From an uncultured virus (IMG/VR IMGVR_UViG_3300010342_000399) (Duplodnaviria > Heunggongvirae > Uroviricota > Caudoviricetes): a stretch of 64,000 nt of DNA. Where the stretch lies: IMG/VR virus record IMGVR_UViG_3300010342_000399; one strand, 5' to 3'. The notes under the pieces are model-generated. The model searched no databases. It was given only the letters and a program-made list of their open reading frames with translations, and had not been told where the DNA came from. Position 1 is the first letter of the stretch, and every line of letters begins with the position of its first letter. Below, in pieces: positions 29,288 to 60,200 of the stretch. A program made the position numbers and the translations under genes.

Positions 29288-29467
29288 TATTTAATACTAC
29301 ATTACAAGGATTCAAAAATATTATTATTGATGGGCATATTTTTTTTCTTCACTATATATAAATCATTAAAAAAATATTTAAATAGGTAGCATTACTAACC
29401 AGATCCCAATAATTTTAATGTTCAATTAATAGTACCAAAATAGTATTCACGATATTATTTATGGTAT

Positions 29468-29619
29468 AGATCCTAGGTGCATAAGACGCTGTCCTAATGT
29501 TCAGGAGGGAAACCGAGGTTAGTGAAGGGCATCATGTTAAGCCACGGAAGAACTGAGAGACATTGAGTATACCTGTAATGGTTTCGGGAATCGTGAGTAA
29601 AAGGCTCACACTAGGATCT
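29468..29619 (+). ncRNA. Candidate ~150-nt structured RNA abutting tRNA-Phe
   Basis: GC-rich island closed by agatcctag/ctaggatct; internal gtgag/ctcac hairpin. Confidence 0.55.
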
Positions 29620-29623
29620 TTTT

Positions 29624-39471: not shown

Positions 39472-40242
39472 TTATTGTTCACTTGGTGTGCCACTTAATT
39501 GTGATAGAGCATGTGAACCGCCTTCAACAAACCAATTCGCAATATCGGAACGTCGATGGACGACATTAAGCATTTGGTCGAGAAGTACAAGTTTTTCTTC
39601 TGGGGATTTTGCTTTATGAACTTGTTCAGCCAATTTAACTAATGGTTTTAACCCATAATCACTTATAAATCTACCCATTTCACTTTTGCTGTCATCCATG
39701 TAATAATAATAGAAGTTATCTAATATTTCCTCATATAAAAGTTTATAAAAATCCTCACGAGTCATTTTATCTTCATCATATTTTTCATTATAAATTTTTT
39801 GTGCAAATGGATGAATTTCAACTTTACACGCTTCGGGATTTTTAAGTGGTATTAAACAATTTATTTGTTCTTTAACCCAAACTCCAATGGTATCATCAAG
39901 AGTTTCTTGGTCTTCTCATTCAGTATGACCAGCCAACGTTGTGAGAATGTTTATTTTTCTGGTGTTGTCGAGCATAATACCCTCAATCATATCTAAACCA
40001 CGTTCATCTTTAACAAAACCAAATTGCATATAATCTTCCCATATTTTCTTTAATCTGGCAAAGGGAATCACTTTCCAAGGAATGTGTTTTGTAAAATCGG
40101 GATTGTTATTATAGAGAAAATCACTCATGATTTCCCATTTTAATTCATCTTCCCGCTCATAATAAACCCAATTAATATTATTATCATATTCACGTAAGAA
40201 TTTAACAACCTTTTCTCTGATTATACGATATAATTTGTTCAT
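39472..40242 (-). pseudogene. Single gene interrupted by an in-frame TGA
   Basis: ORF 39916-40242 continues stop-free in frame into ORF 39472-39765. Confidence 0.7.
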
Positions 40243-40452
40243 GTTATTCTATCACCTAATATAAATATCTAAATATTCGTTAATTTAAAAGATTTTAAAC
40301 GATATCGTATTATCAAAAACTACACAATTCATAGCAAATATGCAAGACTTTTTTTTGGGGGGGGGGGTGTATTAATGAAATCAATGCAGCAATAAAAAAT
40401 TATCAAAAACATGTTGCTGCGGTAATGAATCACTATCGCATCATATTTAGAT

Positions 40453-40482
40453 AAAAAAAGGGGGGCGCTTACCCCCTTTTTT
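40453..40482 (-). terminator. Intrinsic terminator closing the tRNA/Pth2 unit
   Basis: aaaaggggg-loop-ccccctttt with flanking A/T runs. Confidence 0.85.
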
Positions 40483-40819
40483 ATTTTTCCCCCTTAACTG
40501 GAACTTCTTCGAGATACTTATACCCCTCTAAAATTCTATCAATTGATTTCTGAAATTTCTGAAGTGGATGATTTTCTTCAGGATAATGATTTTCAATCTG
40601 GGAAAAACTTTTACCTCTGGCGATGCCATAGACTGCATACATAATACATAATTTCTCACGATTTATTAAATGCTGTCTTGTGGCTTCATTTGCATCCATC
40701 AATCTGTCACCTTTAATGTGAACAGTTTTTCTTTGATTTTTATAAAATTTCTGAATTTCGGCTGCTTTTTTAATGCCGTCTTTCATTGCTGCGATGTTTA
40801 TTTTAATTAAAGTTTCCAT
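40481..40819 (-). CDS. Basic hypothetical protein, last gene of the suppressor/Pth2 unit
   Basis: K.QRK..H and Y..ARGKSFSQIE motifs. Confidence 0.8.
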   Translation of the reverse strand: METLIKINIAAMKDGIKKAAEIQKFYKNQRKTVHIKGDRLMDANEATRQHLINREKLCIMYAVYGIARGKSFSQIENHYPEENHPLQKFQKSIDRILEGYKYLEEVPVKGEK

Positions 40820-40982
40820 AATAATATGAATTTAAATTTATAATAATTTTTGTGTAAACAATTTTGTTTATTTTTATGATTTATGTTACATGTTTTATGT
40901 AAAATTATTGCATATTGCGATTTACGATATGTTTATATGATTTGCAATTCGCAAATCATGCATCGTATTGATAATAACATTA

Positions 40983-41018
40983 TTATGGAGGTCTAATTCG
41001 TGCCTATGATTTTTTCAT
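40983..41018 (-). CDS. Mini-ORF MKKS-(TAG)-ARIRPP-stop, candidate arrest peptide
   Basis: ATG AAA AAA TCA TAG GCA CGA ATT AGA CCT CCA TAA, 4 nt after the Pth2 stop. Confidence 0.6.
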
Positions 41019-41022
41019 AATT

Positions 41023-41352
41023 TCAATTTTTTAGTGCTAAATCTAATTTACTTGTGTATTTACACATTTCAGGTGTTCCATAAAAACAAAAAGCTGTCAT
41101 CTGGTTTTGAACATCTGGCTCATAAAAAGCAACTATGTCAGCACCATAATACTGCAATTTATTATATAGGTCTTTGAGAGATTCTTCATTACTGGTAGAT
41201 AGAGAAATCAAATAATTTGATTCTTTTTTCCAGTAAATGAATTGAGATGGGAATTTTTGTGCAAATTCAGCAATTGCGTGTGCTGATTGGACAAGTTGAT
41301 AACCTGCGGAAAGGTCTTTACGAGTTACGGTTACTAATTTTACCTACTTCAT
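41023..41352 (-). CDS. Pth2-family peptidyl-tRNA hydrolase with amber codon 3
   Basis: ATG AAG TAG GTA.. gives MK*VKLVTVTRKDLSAGYQLVQSAHAIAEF..W..EESL..FYEPD..TA..KLDLAL (109 aa). Confidence 0.82.
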
Positions 41353-41432
41353 AATGTTTATTTTTAATAAATACTGTTGTTTCATAAACAATTACAATAC
41401 CAATTAATTTATCCGTCATTTTGTCACTTTTG

Positions 41433-41503
41433 TGATTCCTGTGGGATTCGAACCCACGAATACTTTTTTAGAGAAAGCCGTTTTACCACTAAACTAAGGA
41501 ATC
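41433..41503 (-). tRNA. Amber suppressor tRNA (anticodon CUA)
   Basis: gattcct/aggaatc acceptor; gttt/aaac D-stem; gcttt-ctCTAaa-aaagt; gtggg-ttcgaat-cccac. Confidence 0.9.
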
Positions 41504-41649
41504 TTAATCATCTGCTAATTTATATATTTTTTTTCGAATTATTTCGTAGTTTTTAAAACACAGACACATTGTTTTAAATGTTTTTCCGTTCGCTTTTTTT
41601 ACTTTTGATTTTAAGCACATATTTATGATTTTTCACATAAATACTTTAG

Positions 41650-41721
41650 TACCCCCGACAAGAATCGAACTCGTATCTTATGGTTCGTAGCCACACGTTT
41701 TATCCGTTAAACTACAGGGGC
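41650..41721 (-). tRNA. tRNA-Arg(ACG)
   Basis: tgtgg-ctACGaa-ccata; canonical cloverleaf. Confidence 0.88.
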
Positions 41722-41772
41722 AAATGTTATTCTTAAATTACATATAAAATGACAATAACAAGATAATTTTTG

Positions 41773-41844
41773 TACTCCCAGAGGGAATTGAACCCCCATC
41801 AAAAATTTAGAAAATTTTCATTCTATCCATTGAACTATGGGAGC
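41773..41844 (-). tRNA. tRNA-Arg(TCT)
   Basis: aaaat-ttTCTaa-atttt; gctccca/tgggagt. Confidence 0.82.
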
Positions 41845-41870
41845 AGGCTTGAATAGTTATATTTTATTAG

Positions 41871-41944
41871 TACCCTCGATGCGACTCGAACGCATAACTC
41901 ACAGATTAAAAGTCTGTTACTCTGTCCAATTGAGTTACGAGGGT
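41871..41944 (-). tRNA. tRNA-Lys(TTT)
   Basis: acaga-ctTTTaa-tctgt; accctcg/cgagggt. Confidence 0.92.
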
Positions 41945-41965
41945 ATTATTTTTTAATAATGATTG

Positions 41966-42038
41966 AGCCAACAGTGGGACTCGAACCCACGATTGCCACT
42001 TTACGAAAGTGGTGTTGTAGCCACTGAACCATATTGGC
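41966..42038 (-). tRNA. tRNA-Thr(CGT)
   Basis: ccact-ttCGTaa-agtgg. Confidence 0.88.
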
Positions 42039-42111
42039 AATAAGACTGCAGTAGAACACTATCTACCTTTCCTTTCGATGACTTATGGTTTATAGTCGAT
42101 ACGGTCATTTG

Positions 42112-42185
42112 AGCCTGATGAGGGATTCGAACCCCCAACCCCCTGATTACAAATCAGGTGCTCTCCCAATTAAAGCTAATCAGGC
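42112..42185 (-). tRNA. tRNA-Thr(TGT)
   Basis: cctga-ttTGTaa-tcagg; gcctgat/atcaggc. Confidence 0.92.
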
Positions 42186-42193
42186 ATGTTTTT

Positions 42194-42550
42194 TTATTCT
42201 ACAATATGACCAATTTGTTCTCGAATATGTTTATTATAATTTTCTGTTTTACGAACAGTACCTCTGGTTGCTGGGTGATAGATAAATTCATGCTCGATTT
42301 GATGCTTTTTAAGCACTTTTTTAACCGTTCTTCCGTTCTTCTCATTGCTATAACAGTTCCATCAAAAGATTTAATGTCGCAAATATCGTCTTCAAATACG
42401 TTTAAGAAGGCACAATCATTCCAACATATTCCAATTTCTTTTAATGGCTTTGTATAGAGGTGCGGCTGCGAGACGTTTATCTTTCCAAGTAACGTTCATT
42501 TTTTTTGCAAGTTCACTACGCTGTTCACCGACAAATAGATATTTTTTCAT
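42194..42550 (-). pseudogene. Frameshifted uracil-DNA-glycosylase-like gene inside the tRNA array
   Basis: MKKYLFVGE.., FLNVF..VIAM and IYHPA.RG found in different frames. Confidence 0.5.
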
Positions 42551-42725
42551 ATATTACGAAATTTAATGGATTTTAATTTTGATTTAACCACAACAAATTT
42601 TATTAAATCACATGCTTTTGTAAATTCTTCGGGTAAGACTTTTGGAAAATTCTTACTACATTTCATAATAAAATTTTAAAATAAAAACAAAGATAATAAG
42701 AATAATTTATTATGCAAATATTTTG

Positions 42726-42798
42726 CGCCCCAGACAGGACTTGAACCTGTAACCAATAGATTAACAGTCTACTGCGCTAACCATTACGCTACTGAGGC
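42726..42798 (-). tRNA. tRNA-Asn(GTT)
   Basis: gtaga-ctGTTaa-tctat; G73. Confidence 0.9.
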
Positions 42799-42804
42799 GT
42801 GAAG

Positions 42805-42877
42805 TAGTGGTAGAGGGATTTGAACCCCCAATCTTTTGGATATAAGCCAACTGCGTTCACCGTTACGCCATACCACT
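42805..42877 (-). tRNA. tRNA-Ile(TAT)
   Basis: ttgg-ctTATat-ccaa; agtggta/taccact. Confidence 0.82.
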
Positions 42878-42889
42878 ATTAATATTTAG

Positions 42890-42961
42890 AGCAGGTAGCG
42901 AGAATCGAACTCGCATCCTCAGCTTGGAAGGCTGACGCACTAACCATTGTGCTATACTTGC
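42890..42961 (-). tRNA. tRNA-Gly(TCC)
   Basis: tcagc-ctTCCaa-gctga; U73. Confidence 0.9.
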
Positions 42962-43007
42962 AAAACGCACTTCCTTTCTTCGTTTAGTGCTAACCGTAGG
43001 TGGGGTG

Positions 43008-43079
43008 TGGAACGAGCAGGATTTGAACCTGCGACCAACAGATTTTCAGTCTGTCACTCTACCACTGAGTTACCCTTTG
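43008..43079 (-). tRNA. tRNA-Phe(GAA), probably pseudo
   Basis: D, anticodon and T arms intact; acceptor caaaggg/tcgttcc largely unpaired. Confidence 0.6.
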
Positions 43080-43153
43080 TTGTCCTGAGTGGATTTGAAC
43101 CACCGACTCCTACATTATCAGTGTAGTACTCTAACCGACTGAGTTACAGGACA
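43080..43153 (-). tRNA. tRNA-Ile(GAT)
   Basis: ctaca-ctGATaa-tgtag; tgtcctg/caggaca. Confidence 0.92.
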
Positions 43154-43158
43154 ATGAG

Positions 43159-43230
43159 AGAAGGCGACAGGATTCGAACCTGCATAAGATGGGTTGCAGC
43201 CACCTACCTAAGCCATTCAGACACGCCTTC
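43159..43230 (-). tRNA. tRNA-Cys(GCA)
   Basis: ggtgg-ctGCAac-ccatc; U73. Confidence 0.9.
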
Positions 43231-43382
43231 ATATGTAAACATTTGGTCAATCCATAGATTGTGCAGTAATCACCACGTGCAGGTAGTTTATCTTGATTAC
43301 CATCCAGCATGTCAAAGAACCCAATTATCGTATTGTAAGCCGATAATTATTATTTATCGGTTGTTAAGCCGATAAGATTTTG

Positions 43383-43453
43383 AGCCAAGTACAAGAATTG
43401 AACTTGTATTTTCTGAATACCACACAGAGGTTTTACCGTTAAACTAACTTGAC
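43383..43453 (-). tRNA. Atypical tRNA, most likely Thr(GGT)
   Basis: gtcaagt/acttggc; tctgt-gtGGTat-tcaga with a U-U closing pair. Confidence 0.6.
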
Positions 43454-43477
43454 GTATGTAAAGAACGTTTTTAAAAC

Positions 43478-43562
43478 AAAAAACTCGAAACTTTGTGGAT
43501 TTCGGGTTCTTGATTTTATTTCAGTTTATTTTATTCCTATTCCATAATAAAACCTGAACCCA
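43478..43562 (-). promoter_or_regulatory. Transcription attenuator (terminator/antiterminator) ahead of the tRNA array
   Basis: Terminator aacccgaaa..tttcgagtt+U-run; alternative pairing gggttcaggttttatt with aataaaatcaagaaccc. Confidence 0.7.
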
Positions 43563-43665
43563 TATCCGTGATATTATTTCTGCCGAAATTAATACATGAT
43601 GTACCTTCTCCATTGCGACTGGTGGTCGAGTGTGATGAAGCTACTATGTAAGATATTCGTTTCAT
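43531..43665 (-). CDS. 42-aa leader peptide ending GAA-TAG-GAA-TAA
   Basis: MKRISYIVASSHSTTSRNGEGTSCINFGRNNITDMGSGFIME*E*, overlapping the antiterminator. Confidence 0.6.
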
Positions 43666-43987
43666 TGATTCAAATGTTTTATTATTATACATTCATTTTA
43701 CTTAAATACGATGCTAATATATAAAATATTACATCATAAACAAAAAAAAAATACAAAAAATTATAAAATATTTTTTATATTTCATGTAATTTAATGATTC
43801 ACAATGCGTTTGCCATTATTCATAATTACGACACCACTATTAGATATTGATTTTTTTATTTGTGGGGGTGTTTCAAGAAAATCGAATGGACCCACACCTA
43901 CGGAGATGAGTGGATTTTACGCTCGTTTCATATAAAATTTTGACAAATATAACAAAAAAAATATAATAACAAAAAAATTATTTTATT

Positions 43988-44803
43988 TTAGTGTAAATAT
44001 GAAAAAGGAGTATAATTGTAATATAGATATTCTGTTTTAATTTTGGGAGTAAAATTACCACTTATTGTTTTAACATCAAAACTTGATTTGGTGAAACCAT
44101 TATCAATTAATTTATCATATAATTCACAATGATAACCACTTATTAATATTTTTGCTTTAGTTTTTATTGCTGCATTTAAAAAATCTATATGTCCATTTCT
44201 GTCCATATCAATATTATATCGAGTAGATGTTCTCGTTGACTGCTCATATGGTGGATCGCAATATAAAAATACGTTAGATGTATTATATTTTTTAATTAAA
44301 TTAATTCCATCAGTATTTGTAACAATAACTCTAGATAATCTATTATGAAGTTCTTGTAATCGATCAATAGATGAAAGAAAATCTGAAATAGATTTACTCA
44401 TACTTCTTCTAATATACATATTTTTGGAAAATCCACCAATGCCATTATGCGATGTTCTATTTACATAAAAAAAATAAAACGCCCTTTCAATAATCGAAAT
44501 ATCCGATTTCTTTAAATTTTCTTTAAATTCGGACCGTAAATCTTCAGAATATAAAGCTATATCACATTTTTCTTTAAAAACTTTAAACATGTCAGGATCA
44601 GATAAAACTTTATATAAAGAATATACATTTTTATCTAGATCATTATATATTTCAATTTCAGTTGGTTCTTTCATTAATCCCACACTAAACGATCCTGCAA
44701 ATGGTTCAATATAAACATTATAACTTTCGCGAGATGGAAAATAATAAATTATATTATTAAACATTGTTCCTTTACCACCAAAATATTTAATAGGAGCTTT
44801 CAT
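43988..44803 (-). CDS. DNA adenine methyltransferase (D12/Dam family)
   Basis: YFGGKG, EPFAGS, NDLD, YCDPPY. Confidence 0.93.
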   Translation of the reverse strand: MKAPIKYFGGKGTMFNNIIYYFPSRESYNVYIEPFAGSFSVGLMKEPTEIEIYNDLDKNVYSLYKVLSDPDMFKVFKEKCDIALYSEDLRSEFKENLKKSDISIIERAFYFFYVNRTSHNGIGGFSKNMYIRRSMSKSISDFLSSIDRLQELHNRLSRVIVTNTDGINLIKKYNTSNVFLYCDPPYEQSTRTSTRYNIDMDRNGHIDFLNAAIKTKAKILISGYHCELYDKLIDNGFTKSSFDVKTISGNFTPKIKTEYLYYNYTPFSYLH

Positions 44804-45024
44804 TAAATTAAATTATTTTCTATGATTTTATTCATCGCCATTTTTGGTGAAATTTTTCTACTACACTCAAAATTTTTATTTTCTGGGCAAAACGAATTAT
44901 GATAGCAAACTAATTTATCAGCATGTGCTTTTGAATTAAAACAACCAGTACACACATCATAATTTTTTACTCTTATACAATCTTCTTGAAATTCATACCA
45001 ATCTTCTGTAAATCCATTAATCAT
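44803..45024 (-). pseudogene. C-terminal fragment of a TibC/AAH-like heptosyltransferase
   Basis: INGFT..VCTGCFN..CPENKNFECSRKI parallels the end of 47077-49818. Confidence 0.7.
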
Positions 45025-53766: not shown

Positions 53767-53910
53767 ATTTTTTAATTGATTAACTACTTCTTTCTGTCTT
53801 GTGGTATGATATTTCTTCCATAATAGCTACCCGAATCTTTGTCAAAGGCCGTAATTTCTGCGTATATGTTTTTCATAGTTTTAATCGTTATTGGTTAATA
53901 CTATCTATTA

Positions 53911-53936
53911 TACGAAAAAAAGCCAGAATTATTACA
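53911..53936 (-). promoter_or_regulatory. ECF-type promoter motif TGTAAT-N16-CGTA
   Basis: Same motif and spacing at 54440-54465, 54957-54982 and 39436-39461. Confidence 0.65.
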
Positions 53937-54406: not shown

Positions 54407-54734
54407 TGTCTCGCTGTTGTTGGTTAATACTATATATTATACGAAAAAACCCCCAGAATATTACATTTTGAGGGCAAAAACTTTAAACTAAGAGCAAACA
54501 AATTTAAAAACTATATCTGTCAATCTTTTCAATCCTGTCATCAATCCAGTCAGTAATGTTTCAATTTACATTAGCAAAATTCAAAATATCTTTGCTTGTG
54601 CTTTTCTTTTCTTGTATAGGCATTATCTGACTTATGTACTTTGTGCTTTGCAGTCCAACCAGTTTGATTTTCCAGTTCAGCTTCCCTGCTGCCTCTGTGG
54701 ATTGCTTTCATGTAATCATCAAAACAAAAATGTT

Positions 54735-57284: not shown

Positions 57285-60200
57285 TTGATCTTGTTGGCGT
57301 TCTTGATGGCGTTCTTGATGGTGTTACAGTTGGGCTTGTTGATGGTGTTGTTGTTGATGTTGGAGATGGACTAGGCGGTTGATAACATGGACGGCCACTA
57401 CCACTATTATATAAATATGCAACTTCTAATGATGTTATAACTCTATCCCACATAGCAACCTCATCCATTGTTCNNNNNNNNNNNNNNNNNNNNNNNNNNN
57501 NNNNNNNNNNNNNNNNNNNNNNNNNNNNNNNNNNNNNNNNNNNNNNNNNNNNNNNNNNNNNNNNNNNNNNNNNNNNNNNNNNNNNNNNNNNNNNNNNNNN
57601 NNNNNNNNNNNNNNNNNNNNNNNNNNNNNNNNNNNNNNNNNNNNNNNNNNNNNNNNNNNNNNNNNNNNNNNNNNNNNNNNNNNNNNNNNNNNNNNNNNNN
57701 NNNNNNNNNNNNNNNNNNNNNNNNNNNNNNNNNNNNNNNNNNNNNNNNNNNNNNNNNNNNNNNNNNNNNNNNNNNNNNNNNNNNNNNNNNNNNNNNNNNN
57801 NNNNNNNNNNNNNNNNNNNNNNNNNNNNNNNNNNNNNNNNNNNNNNNNNNNNNNNNNNNNNNNNNNNNNNNNNNNNNNNNNNNNNNNNNNNNNNNNNNNN
57901 NNNNNNNNNNNNNNNNNNNNNNNNNNNNNNNNNNTTCGTTGTTGTTAAATCATGCCCATTTTCTGTACTATCATAAAATGTGCCACTAGCCTCTTCAAAA
58001 TCCCAACATGCAACTAATCCACTAGTAAATGGATTGTGAATTGGTGATGGTGTTATAGATGACGTTCTCGATATTGATATACTTGGTGTACTGGATACTG
58101 ATAATGATGGTGTTATAGTATTAGATACAGATAAACTGGGCGTATTTGATACAGATAAACTTGGTGTATTAGATACAGATAAGCTTGGAGTATTTGATAT
58201 AGATAAACTAGGCGTATTTGATACTGATAATGATGGTGTTATAGTATTAGATACAGATAAACTGGGCGTATTTGATACAGATAAACTTGGCGTTCTAGTA
58301 TTAGATACAGATAAACTGGGCGTATTTGATACAGATAAACTTGGCGTGTTAGAAACTGATAAACTTGGAGTGTTTGATACAGATAAGCTTGGAGTATTTG
58401 ATATAGATAAACTAGGCGTATTTGATACTGATAATGATGGTGTTATAGTATTAGATACAGATAAACTGAGCGTATTTGATACAGATAAACTTGGTGTATT
58501 TGATACAGATAAACTTGGCGTGTTAGAAACTGATAAACTTGGAGTGTTTGATACAGATAAGCTTGGCGTGTTAGAAACTGATAAACTAGGCGTATTTGAT
58601 ACTGATAATGATGGTGTTATAGTATTAGATACAGATAAACTTGGAGTATTTGATACTGATAATGATGGTGTTATAGTATTAGATACAGATAAGCTTGGAG
58701 TATTTGATATAGATAAACTAGGCGTATTTGATACAGATAAACTTGGCGTTCTAGTATTAGATACAGATAAACTGGGCGTATTTGATACTGATAATGATGG
58801 TGTTATAGTATTAGATACAGATAAACTGGGCGTATTTGATACAGATAAACTTGGTGTGTTAGAAACTGATAAACTAGGCGTATTTGATACAGATAAACTT
58901 GGCGTTCTAGTATTAGATACAGATAAACTGGGCGTATTTGATACTGATAAACTTGGTGTTCTAGATATAGATATTGATGGTGTTGTTGTTGGTGTTGTTG
59001 TTGGCGTTATTGATGGTGTTACAGTTGGGCTTGTTGATGGTGTTGGCGTTGGTGATGCTGGCATACATGTAATGCCATTTCCATTATTATATAAATAAGT
59101 TATATCGGTTTGATTTAATTCTCTAGAAAATATCGCAAACGCATCTACATATCCATATAAGCTATGAATTAAGTCCAAATCATTTCCAATCATTGTATAT
59201 GTTGTATATGATCCGGTATATGATGGCGCATTACTAAAACTTAGAGTGTCAATATAATATCCATCGCCATAAAATTTTAATTCATAATTATTATTAAAAG
59301 TAATGACTATATGATGCCATAATTGATCCATTACAATATTTATGGCTTTTTGATCTAATACTCCATCATTTATTATACTAAAATATATACTACCTTCAAG
59401 TTCATTATTAAGAACTAAAAACATATAAAAACCACCAGACATATCTTCTTTTATACGACCATATAGTAATCTTATACCTGTTGAACCAGTCACAACTCTT
59501 AACCAAAGAGATATTGAAAACTCTTGTAAGTCAAGGCTATCACCTATAGTTCCGGCATTTCCAATAACAGAATTATTACTAAGGAAACCAATGGAATAAT
59601 TATCAACTATTCCAGACGCCTGATAAGTAACATTTATTGAAGCATCTAAATCATTATGATAAGCTGTAGAATCATAAAGTGTTCCACTTGCTTCTTCACA
59701 ATTCCAACAAGCTATTAATCCACCTAAATATGGATTAGTGGGTATCGATGGCGTTATCGATGGTGTTCTTGAAATTGACAAACTAGGTGTATTTGATATC
59801 GACAAACTAGGCGTATTTGATATCGATAAACTAGGTGTATTTGATACAGATAAACTAGGTGTCTGAGTATTGGATACAGATAAACTAGGTGTATTTGATA
59901 CTGATAAACTAGGTGTCTGAGTAATGGATATAGATAAACTAGGTGTATTAGATATTGATTCACTTGGTGTATTAGATATTGATAAACTAGGTGTGTTTGA
60001 TATTGATATACTGGGCGTTTGAGTATTGGATACAGATAAACTAGGCGTATTAGATATTGATAAACTAGGCGTATTTGATACAGATAAACTTGGTGTATTA
60101 GATACAGATAAACTTGGAGTATTTGATATAGATAAACTTGGCGTATTTGATATTGACAAACTAGGCGTCTGAGTATTAGATACAGATAAACTTGGCGTAT

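Follow-up and report, generated by a model that had tools for sequence, protein, structure and literature searches.

What decides whether a phage transcribes its tRNA genes? The question is raised by a locus in the window, by which we mean the whole stretch of 64,000 nucleotides from an uncultured Caudoviricetes virus (IMG/VR IMGVR_UViG_3300010342_000399) that was analysed. Here a Dam methylase gene (43988-44803, minus strand) is followed by a small open reading frame, two hairpins that share a strand, and an array of tRNA genes (Table 1). A sequence-only reading of this DNA had seen in the arrangement a leader peptide that controls the array. Our analysis suggests that the core of this idea is probably right: we consider it likely that the unit is a ribosome-mediated (leader-peptide) transcription attenuator heading a phage tRNA array.

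The window has a G+C content of about 25%. Among phages, its Dam methylase is most similar to proteins of two uncultured phage genomes (635 and 595 kb), with 51% and 35% identity. Between 43453 and 41432 its minus strand carries 13 tRNA genes, and the CUA suppressor is one of these 13 and not an addition to them, as had been counted before. A Pth2-like ORF sits directly 3' of the suppressor tRNA. Its match to the Pfam PTH2 family has an E of 1e-4 and 22.9 bits (the cut-off is 23), and an ORF of 112 aa lies downstream of it. Reading TAG as Q alters few other ORFs in the window; recoding looks partial or confined to particular genes. The strong bidirectional terminator further downstream is likely the end of the transcription unit, and on the minus strand from 43481 to 40457 we found no terminator candidate other than this site (40457-40479). 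It had been claimed that the attenuator controls all the tRNAs, the suppressor and the Pth2-like gene. For the first seven tRNAs, which would be gated directly, this claim may stand. As a claim of sole control it is not supported, because there is an internal promoter-like site at 42718-42688. This site may also drive transcription of block 2, the suppressor and the Pth2-like gene, which hence need not depend on the attenuator.

Other stretches of the window are also worth noting. The 151-nt gap between tRNA-Thr and tRNA-Cys (43231-43381, minus strand) contains two repeated hairpins (UUAUCGGCUUA..) and has a fold z-score of -2.1. A weak HDV-ribozyme-like match at 43235-43301 (23.4 bits, E 0.35) stays under the gathering score. 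Directly 5' of tRNA-Phe (29624), in a second tRNA cluster, lies a G+C-richer stretch (29455-29623, plus strand). A long-range helix of 9-11 bp (AUCCUAGG.. / ..CUAGGAU) closes it, and UUUUU comes next. This stretch matches no Rfam family, its fold z-score is only -1.2, and no leader ORF was found before this tRNA cluster. At 57474-57934 a masked run of N lies within the region of a 1604-aa ORF.

Table 1. Positions of the features in the window, followed by leader stretches of units in distant huge phages with the tRNA genes that they precede.
Feature	Position	Strand	Description
Promoter-like box	43703..43744	-	TTTG (43744-43741), 19-nt spacer, TATATTAG (43721-43714), GTATTTA (43709-43703)
Leader ORF MKRISYIVASSHSTTSRNGEGTSCINFGRNNITDMGSGFIME	43537..43665	-	42 codons + TAG (43539-43537), ATG at 43665
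Candidate regulatory codons, residues 14-33 TTSRNGEGTSCINFGRNNIT	43567..43626	-	17/20 amino acids with array tRNA
Antiterminator hairpin A	43504..43561	-	5' arm 43561-43546 (codons G-S-G-F-I), 3' arm 43520-43504
Terminator T	43473..43509	-	Stem 43509-43481 with C.A mismatch; U-run 43483-43473 (U6GU4)
tRNA block 1	42725..43453	-	Thr(GGU), Cys(GCA), Ile(GAU), Phe(GAA), Gly(UCC), Ile(UAU), Asn(GUU); ARAGORN + Rfam
Internal promoter-like site TTTG-N19-TATCTTTG	42688..42718	-	Exact pattern match, in the array's 539-nt gap
tRNA block 2	41432..42185	-	Thr(UGU), Thr(CGU), Lys(UUU), Arg(UCU), Arg(ACG), CUA suppressor (41432-41503); ARAGORN + Rfam
Pth2-like ORF	41023..41391	-	Open only if one in-frame TAG is sense
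Bidirectional terminator, strong	40440..40480 (near 40457-40479)	both	dG -14.5 (-), -16.1 (+)
Leader MTTTQQIQQQQINQTD (QQIQQQQ stretch)			Before tRNA-Gln x3
Leader MKTINNTSKSSSRSSSMSEIRLYS (SKSSSRSSS stretch)			Before Arg + Ser
Leader stretch ..APVNPQPQDQDP..			Before Pro, Asp x4, Pro
Leader stretch ..SYESYYEEG..			Before Glu/Tyr
Leader stretch ..THKNFSKSHKWF..			Before His, Phe, Trp, Lys
N/L/T/M/V/I-rich leader			Before Asn, Arg, Leu, Val, Ile, Thr, Met

Upstream of the leader, the promoter-like motif that had been placed at 43707-43733 matches a box that is conserved in five relatives. The window's box aligns with TTTG-N19-TACCTTTG..GTATTTAG in these relatives, and the invariant columns are present. 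The relatives' box reads TTTG-N19-TAnnTTTG followed by GTATTTA, from which the window's leader site departs by one mismatch. Exact matches to TTTG-N19-21-TAnnTTTG occur 14 times in the window (3.4 are expected), mostly before genes. We take a box of the TTTG-N19-TAnnTTTG type to be the Bacteroidota promoter consensus, and because of this resemblance a Bacteroidota host is suggested for the phage. A sigma-70-type scan of the leader strand found no site at the leader. On the other strand, at 43940-43967, a perfect sigma-70 consensus (TTGACA-16-TATAAT) faces the end of the Dam gene in antisense orientation. Another pattern, TGTAAT-N15/16-TCGTAT, is found four times in the window against 0.15 expected. 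Two cassette copies at 53910-53936 and 54439-54465 (minus strand) have TGTAAT..TCGTATAAT in the loop and U-run of a terminator hairpin, and in both AGTATTAACCAA and then a gene start follow; each looks like a terminator and promoter module.

The 42-aa ORF that had been described is present on the minus strand (43665-43537), and its frame ends in TAG GAA TAA, with the second stop at 43533-43531. The ORF listing gives a longer form of 51 aa (43537..43692, minus strand). The ORF ends 84 nt before tRNA-Thr. Its ATG has a start context within the top 1.7% of 2724 non-start ATGs. Shine-Dalgarno motifs are absent from the window's genes, so that their absence before the leader is uninformative. By length the ORF is not unusual: same-strand ORFs of at least 42 and at least 51 codons arise in 24% and 12% of 2000 intergenic shuffles, respectively. 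Its codon-usage log-odds are ambiguous, at the 8th percentile of real gene segments and the 91st of spurious ORFs. Near-identical DNA is present in 17 sequencing runs from wastewater, digester, sludge and soil, and a variant in contigs from these runs (43642 T>C) changes no amino acid of the leader. Contigs from two RNA libraries cover parts of the tRNA array and 43889-44059, with 43306-43806 uncovered.

The last codons of the leader do pair with a segment that overlaps the 5' arm of the terminator, as had been proposed. In hairpin A, GGGUUCAGGUUUUAUU (43561-43546) pairs with AAUAAAAUC..GAACCC (43520-43504). The hairpin is stable (dG -12.6, or -14.1 with one extra pair; pair probabilities 0.90-0.99), both stop codons of the frame are located in its loop, and its energy is matched by 2.8-3.3% of 58-nt windows. 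The motif GAACCC is common to the 3' arm of A and the 5' arm of T. The stem of T consists of GAAC-C-CGAAAU and GUUUCG-A-GUUU, and its last pairs draw on the U-run. Its dG is -5.8 to -7.9, varying with the portion of the U-run that is counted. The hairpin ends at 43481, 27 nt before tRNA-Thr (43453), and its U-rich tail stops some 20 nt short of this gene. A consensus terminator scan of 41000-45000 returned three terminator-like sites, and T was not among them. In a Rfam scan of 40000-45000 nothing was found in 43455-43990; elsewhere there were only tRNAs and weak, chance-level matches.

A and T are thermodynamically exclusive. The probability of T, P(T), is about 0.02-0.06 in the free RNA; masking the distal ORF raises it to 0.7-1.0. 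Of 200 shuffles of the upstream sequence, 9.5% sequester T as strongly as the native sequence does, and in 9.5-24% the weak T loses to what lies upstream. If we move a ribosome along the leader in folding calculations, hairpin A stays intact as long as the ribosomal A site is at codons 1-28, and P(T) is 0.0 at first but 0.9 when the A site has moved beyond about codon 30. In equilibrium folds of the full-length relatives, strong terminators form at any ribosome position. Hence, our model needs kinetic, co-transcriptional control. The state at the decision can be approximated by folding RNAs that are truncated just before the 3' arm of T. In these truncated RNAs the 5' arm of T is held by the distal leader segment in all four units tested (P 0.6-0.8). 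It is freed only with a ribosome on the distal codons, again in 4/4 units, and the codons that match the array lie upstream of that zone.

These folds lead to the following model. Transcription would start at the Bacteroidota-type promoter-like box near 43710, and the 42-codon leader would be translated as RNA polymerase advances. Pairing of GGGUUCAGGUUUUAUU with AAUAAAAUC..GAACCC would form hairpin A and sequester the 5' arm of T, so that naked or slowly translated RNA would read into the tRNA genes. A ribosome at codons ~30-42 or at the stop codon would melt the 5' arm of A. GAACCC would then be free, T would form, and transcription would terminate about 20 nt before tRNA-Thr. If instead the ribosome stalled on codons read by the array (residues 14-33), A would stay intact and the array would be transcribed. 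The outcome would be a demand-driven supply of tRNAs with negative feedback. We infer here that the leader is translated, that ribosome and polymerase are coupled, and that the switch runs in this direction in vivo.

Taken by themselves, the ORF, A and T of the window are within chance; it is their conservation in relatives that makes them real. These relatives were not reached by every route. Exact 25-26-mers from the terminator and from tRNA-Thr had no matches in viral contigs. With the single leader peptide as query we found no relatives in viral contigs and only the peptide itself among 5.8 billion proteins. A blastn search of the region against phage records gave no match, and a longer query gave single-tRNA matches only. 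Synteny with Dam did not lead to relatives of the unit either. There were no tRNA genes in the flanks of four viral loci, one phage-record locus and 12 metagenome loci with Dam (17 loci were fetched and 16 scanned, viral locus L006 being left out), and no leader DNA similarity at the Dam-linked loci. The tRNA block thus appears to be an insertion at this Dam-adjacent place in the window's lineage only.

A closer relative, an IMG/VR contig of 43.7 kb with a Dam that is 75% identical and with 27 tRNA matches, holds a homologue of the leader in one gap of its array. There, too, we find the pairing of GGGUUCAGG with GAACCCG and a strong terminator, and the unit precedes Cys, Asn, Ile, Ile, Ser, Ser, Ser. 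A motif search gave a third homologue, and a profile of the three leaders gave 11 loci, which together with the window make nine distinct units. The window leader is 43-45% identical to the two distant homologues and 72-73% to eight loci. In eight of nine loci examined tRNA-Thr(GGU) and then tRNA-Cys stand behind the unit, in the order of the window.

What is conserved in these units is both the frame and the switch. The frame is open over 40-49 codons in all nine distinct units, indels between leaders are whole codons, and pN/pS is 0.12-0.90 and below 1 in each of eight pairs, with a synonymous-site divergence of up to about 57%. Fourteen residues are invariant in the alignment of three leaders. 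Most of these either have a tRNA in the array or are specified by the antiterminator arm, where GGU UCA GG encodes GSG. Hairpin A with the stop codon inside and T directly behind it is present in 9/9 units (A -14.1 to -22.0; -16.7 to -22.0 in the eight relatives), and in every one of them the same GAACCCG forms the 3' arm of A and the 5' arm of T. The inner helix of hairpin A occurs in four unrelated sequence solutions. We did not use a whole-switch MAFFT alignment for pair counts in hairpin A, as it is out of structural register for three distant sequences.

For T, the covariation in relatives that had been named as a check is observed. Across seven distinct sequences 96.1% of 77 cells pair, and three of 11 pairs carry double compensatory changes. 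The covariation score is matched by one in 500 shuffles, and if the partner is slid by one column pairing falls to 61-70%. At pair 5-27 the sole broken cell is the window's own. Because of this C.A mismatch the window's T is weak (-5.8 vs -13 to -16 in the eight relatives), and this copy may be a leaky or poor terminator.

The arrays of the relatives show further features that we note in passing. In locus L035 (reverse complement) several array spacers of 190-370 nt, among them those after Lys(UUU), Phe(GAA), Gly(UCC) and Gly(UCC)/Met, have a high G+C content and seem to be structured. They may represent introns, tRNA-like pieces or RNAs that have gone unrecognised. ARAGORN reports odd anticodon loops, AC in L035 and GTAG, ACAT, AAGA and GAAA in the arrays of other relatives. 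By eye, L035 (reverse complement) also contains a second, non-homologous unit at about 1190-1345, with the leader MRTINKYFVSKSYKMYLMGIGRDLFNC, a strong terminator, and then Lys, Lys, Tyr, Lys, Met.

If the leader senses the tRNAs that follow, then its codons should correspond to the array. In the window this correspondence is moderate. Each of the array's 12 sense tRNA species has a cognate codon in the leader, which has a probability of 0.002 under gene codon usage, 0.015 under the regional base composition and 0.03-0.07 under the ORF's own composition. The 17 of 20 served residues between positions 14 and 33 have a scan-statistic P of 0.003. Over the whole leader 25 of 41 residues are served (0.46 expected, p 0.04). 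The match is not specific to the window's own array, for which the leader's z-score is 1.9 against 2.4 and 2.0 for two foreign arrays. Serine makes up seven of the 41 leader residues after the start Met, and tRNA-Ser is missing from the window's 16 tRNAs. Since the arrays of relatives carry tRNA-Ser, the Ser-rich composition of the window leader may be inherited. Cysteine occurs at an invariant position of the three-leader alignment and in each of the seven distinct leader peptides, and tRNA-Cys is found in all the arrays.

In distant huge phages the tie between codon enrichment and regulated product is strong. In LR745206.1 (61 tRNA matches) a shared promoter-like box, an ORF of 16-38 codons and a terminator of -12 to -20 kcal/mol stand before the arrays. 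In most units 8-25 nt separate the end of the terminator from the tRNA block, in a few 77-105 nt. Searching for tRNA genes after a gap of at least 120 nt with a terminator and an ORF that ends within 100 nt of it, we found units at seven of 15 tRNA blocks in LR745206.1, six of 15 in an IMG/VR contig of 385 kb and one of seven in the window. The same pipeline found leader and terminator units at none of the 36 tRNA blocks of LR756511.1. The 13 leaders in these two distant phages are not homologous to that of the window, and they are rich in the amino acids of the tRNAs that they precede (Table 1). We scored each pairing of leader and array by a z-score that counts the leader residues served by an array tRNA. 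No other among the 5040 permutations in LR745206.1, or among the 720 in the 385-kb contig, scores as high as the true pairing. Nearly all amino-acid matches are codon-anticodon matches as well. Eight homologous and 13 non-homologous units hence lend support to the earlier claim that a ribosome reaching the end of the leader would favour termination, while an early stall would open the tRNA genes.

One could also argue that the ORF encodes a small trans-acting protein. T would then be its leaky terminator, or one shared with upstream genes, and the tRNAs would be reached by read-through that senses nothing. A peptide with 14 invariant residues and pN/pS below 1 is what one expects of such a protein, and the weak terminator of the window fits as well. 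Yet 13 non-homologous leaders that match their own tRNA blocks are left unexplained. A trans-acting protein also gives no reason for the stop codon to lie always within a hairpin that has GAACCCG in common with the terminator, or for most invariant residues to be array amino acids or encoded by the antiterminator arm. Furthermore, the leader peptide matches no Pfam family, and the 11 loci of the profile search are all at tRNA arrays. We consider this explanation unlikely.

Alternatively, the precursor of the tRNAs could carry A and T in its 5' leader as signals for processing, stability or pausing, with the ORF left untranslated. Both hairpins are conserved, and the length of the window's ORF (12-24% of shuffles) and its codon usage would fit a chance frame. 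A chance frame, however, would hardly stay open in nine of nine units despite a synonymous-site divergence of up to about 57% and whole-codon indels. It would not be expected to accumulate more synonymous than non-synonymous changes in eight of eight pairs, or to have a start context like that of real starts. The matching of array amino acids, too, makes sense only if the frame is read. An element made of RNA only is thus quite improbable.

A third possibility concerns the amber codon at the end of the window's leader. The sequence-only reading had suggested that the UAG could provide feedback from the suppressor tRNA, so that the operon's suppressor would tune termination. Some observations favour the idea: TAG ends the leader, yet only two of 60 long ORFs in the window; a CUA suppressor is part of the array; and the neighbouring Pth2-like gene needs TAG read-through. 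It is not supported by the comparison of stop codons, which in the nine distinct units are TAA (seven), TGA (one) and TAG (one, the window). Read-through would add only two codons before the TAA that lies 6 nt further on, still within the loop of A, and the ribosome would cover the same arm. By simple arithmetic, about a quarter of chance stops are TAG at the base composition of the ORF. Amber feedback therefore has, in our view, a rather poor chance of being right. Mere coincidence of an ORF with an AU-rich hairpin and with a second, weak hairpin and its U-run is extremely improbable. At 25% G+C each feature alone is within chance, yet eight other distinct units keep all of them together and show compensatory changes.

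How does a ribosome-mediated attenuator of tRNA genes relate to known systems? trpL, hisL, pheL, leuL, thrL and ilvL are leader-peptide transcription attenuators of amino-acid operons, and thrL and ilvL are multivalent. Like these, the window's unit has a short leader (by inference translated) with many of the relevant codons. An intrinsic terminator stands directly 5' of the genes that would be regulated, and the antiterminator, which is predicted to be controlled by the position of the ribosome, shares sequence with the terminator's 5' arm. The thr and ilv leaders come closest, as the unit would, like them, sense several amino acids jointly. The window's unit differs from all of them in its targets, which are tRNAs and not biosynthetic enzymes, in its carrier, which is a phage, and in the breadth of its codons, which correspond to up to 12 tRNA species.

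There is also a difference in geometry. Of five testable features of leader-peptide attenuators four are found here, and the 1:2 hairpin is not. The geometry had been called classical before; this cannot be upheld. Neither the minimum-energy nor the ensemble folds of the window contain a pairing of region 1 with region 2, and hairpin A is the default (P 0.99). What we find is a switch made of two hairpins, and naked RNA is predicted to read through by default. Unlike in the trp type, untranslated RNA should read through, which makes the unit default-on. A 1:2-like pairing occurs in one distant unit, L021.

Attenuation of pheST through the pheM leader and T-box riboswitches control genes of aminoacyl-tRNA synthetases. 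As is proposed for the window's unit, the supply of translation components is linked to the tRNA pool through transcription termination. pheM differs in that it controls a synthetase where the window's unit would control tRNA genes. A T-box binds uncharged tRNA directly and needs no translation, and the Rfam scan gave no match to a T-box covariance model in 43455-43990.

What tRNA arrays do for phages has long been asked. Among the roles that have been proposed for phage tRNA arrays are codon compensation and escape from tRNA-cleaving defences (PMC10264068, PMC11464382). In what a full-text literature search returned, we found no publication in which leader peptides are joined with phage or viral tRNA genes. 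One may speculate that in giant phages each tRNA block is metered by its own "test peptide" that samples those very tRNAs. Such a sensor would register failed decoding array by array and switch on replacements when the host's tRNAs run low or are cleaved by anticodon nucleases. The amber stop of the window, with a suppressor tRNA and a Pth2-like gene containing TAG close by, would then also tie the sensor to a switch of the phage to TAG as sense. We regard this extension as doubtful.

The likely attenuator itself has consequences for how phage tRNA arrays are understood. If arrays sit behind codon-matched attenuators, then the phage itself reports what its tRNAs are for: they would be made when those codons are decoded slowly. 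If this is true, leader-peptide attenuation would not be confined to amino-acid biosynthesis but would also act on tRNA supply, and it would occur in viruses as well. The leaders would then be natural, compact and tRNA-specific sensors, one per tRNA set.
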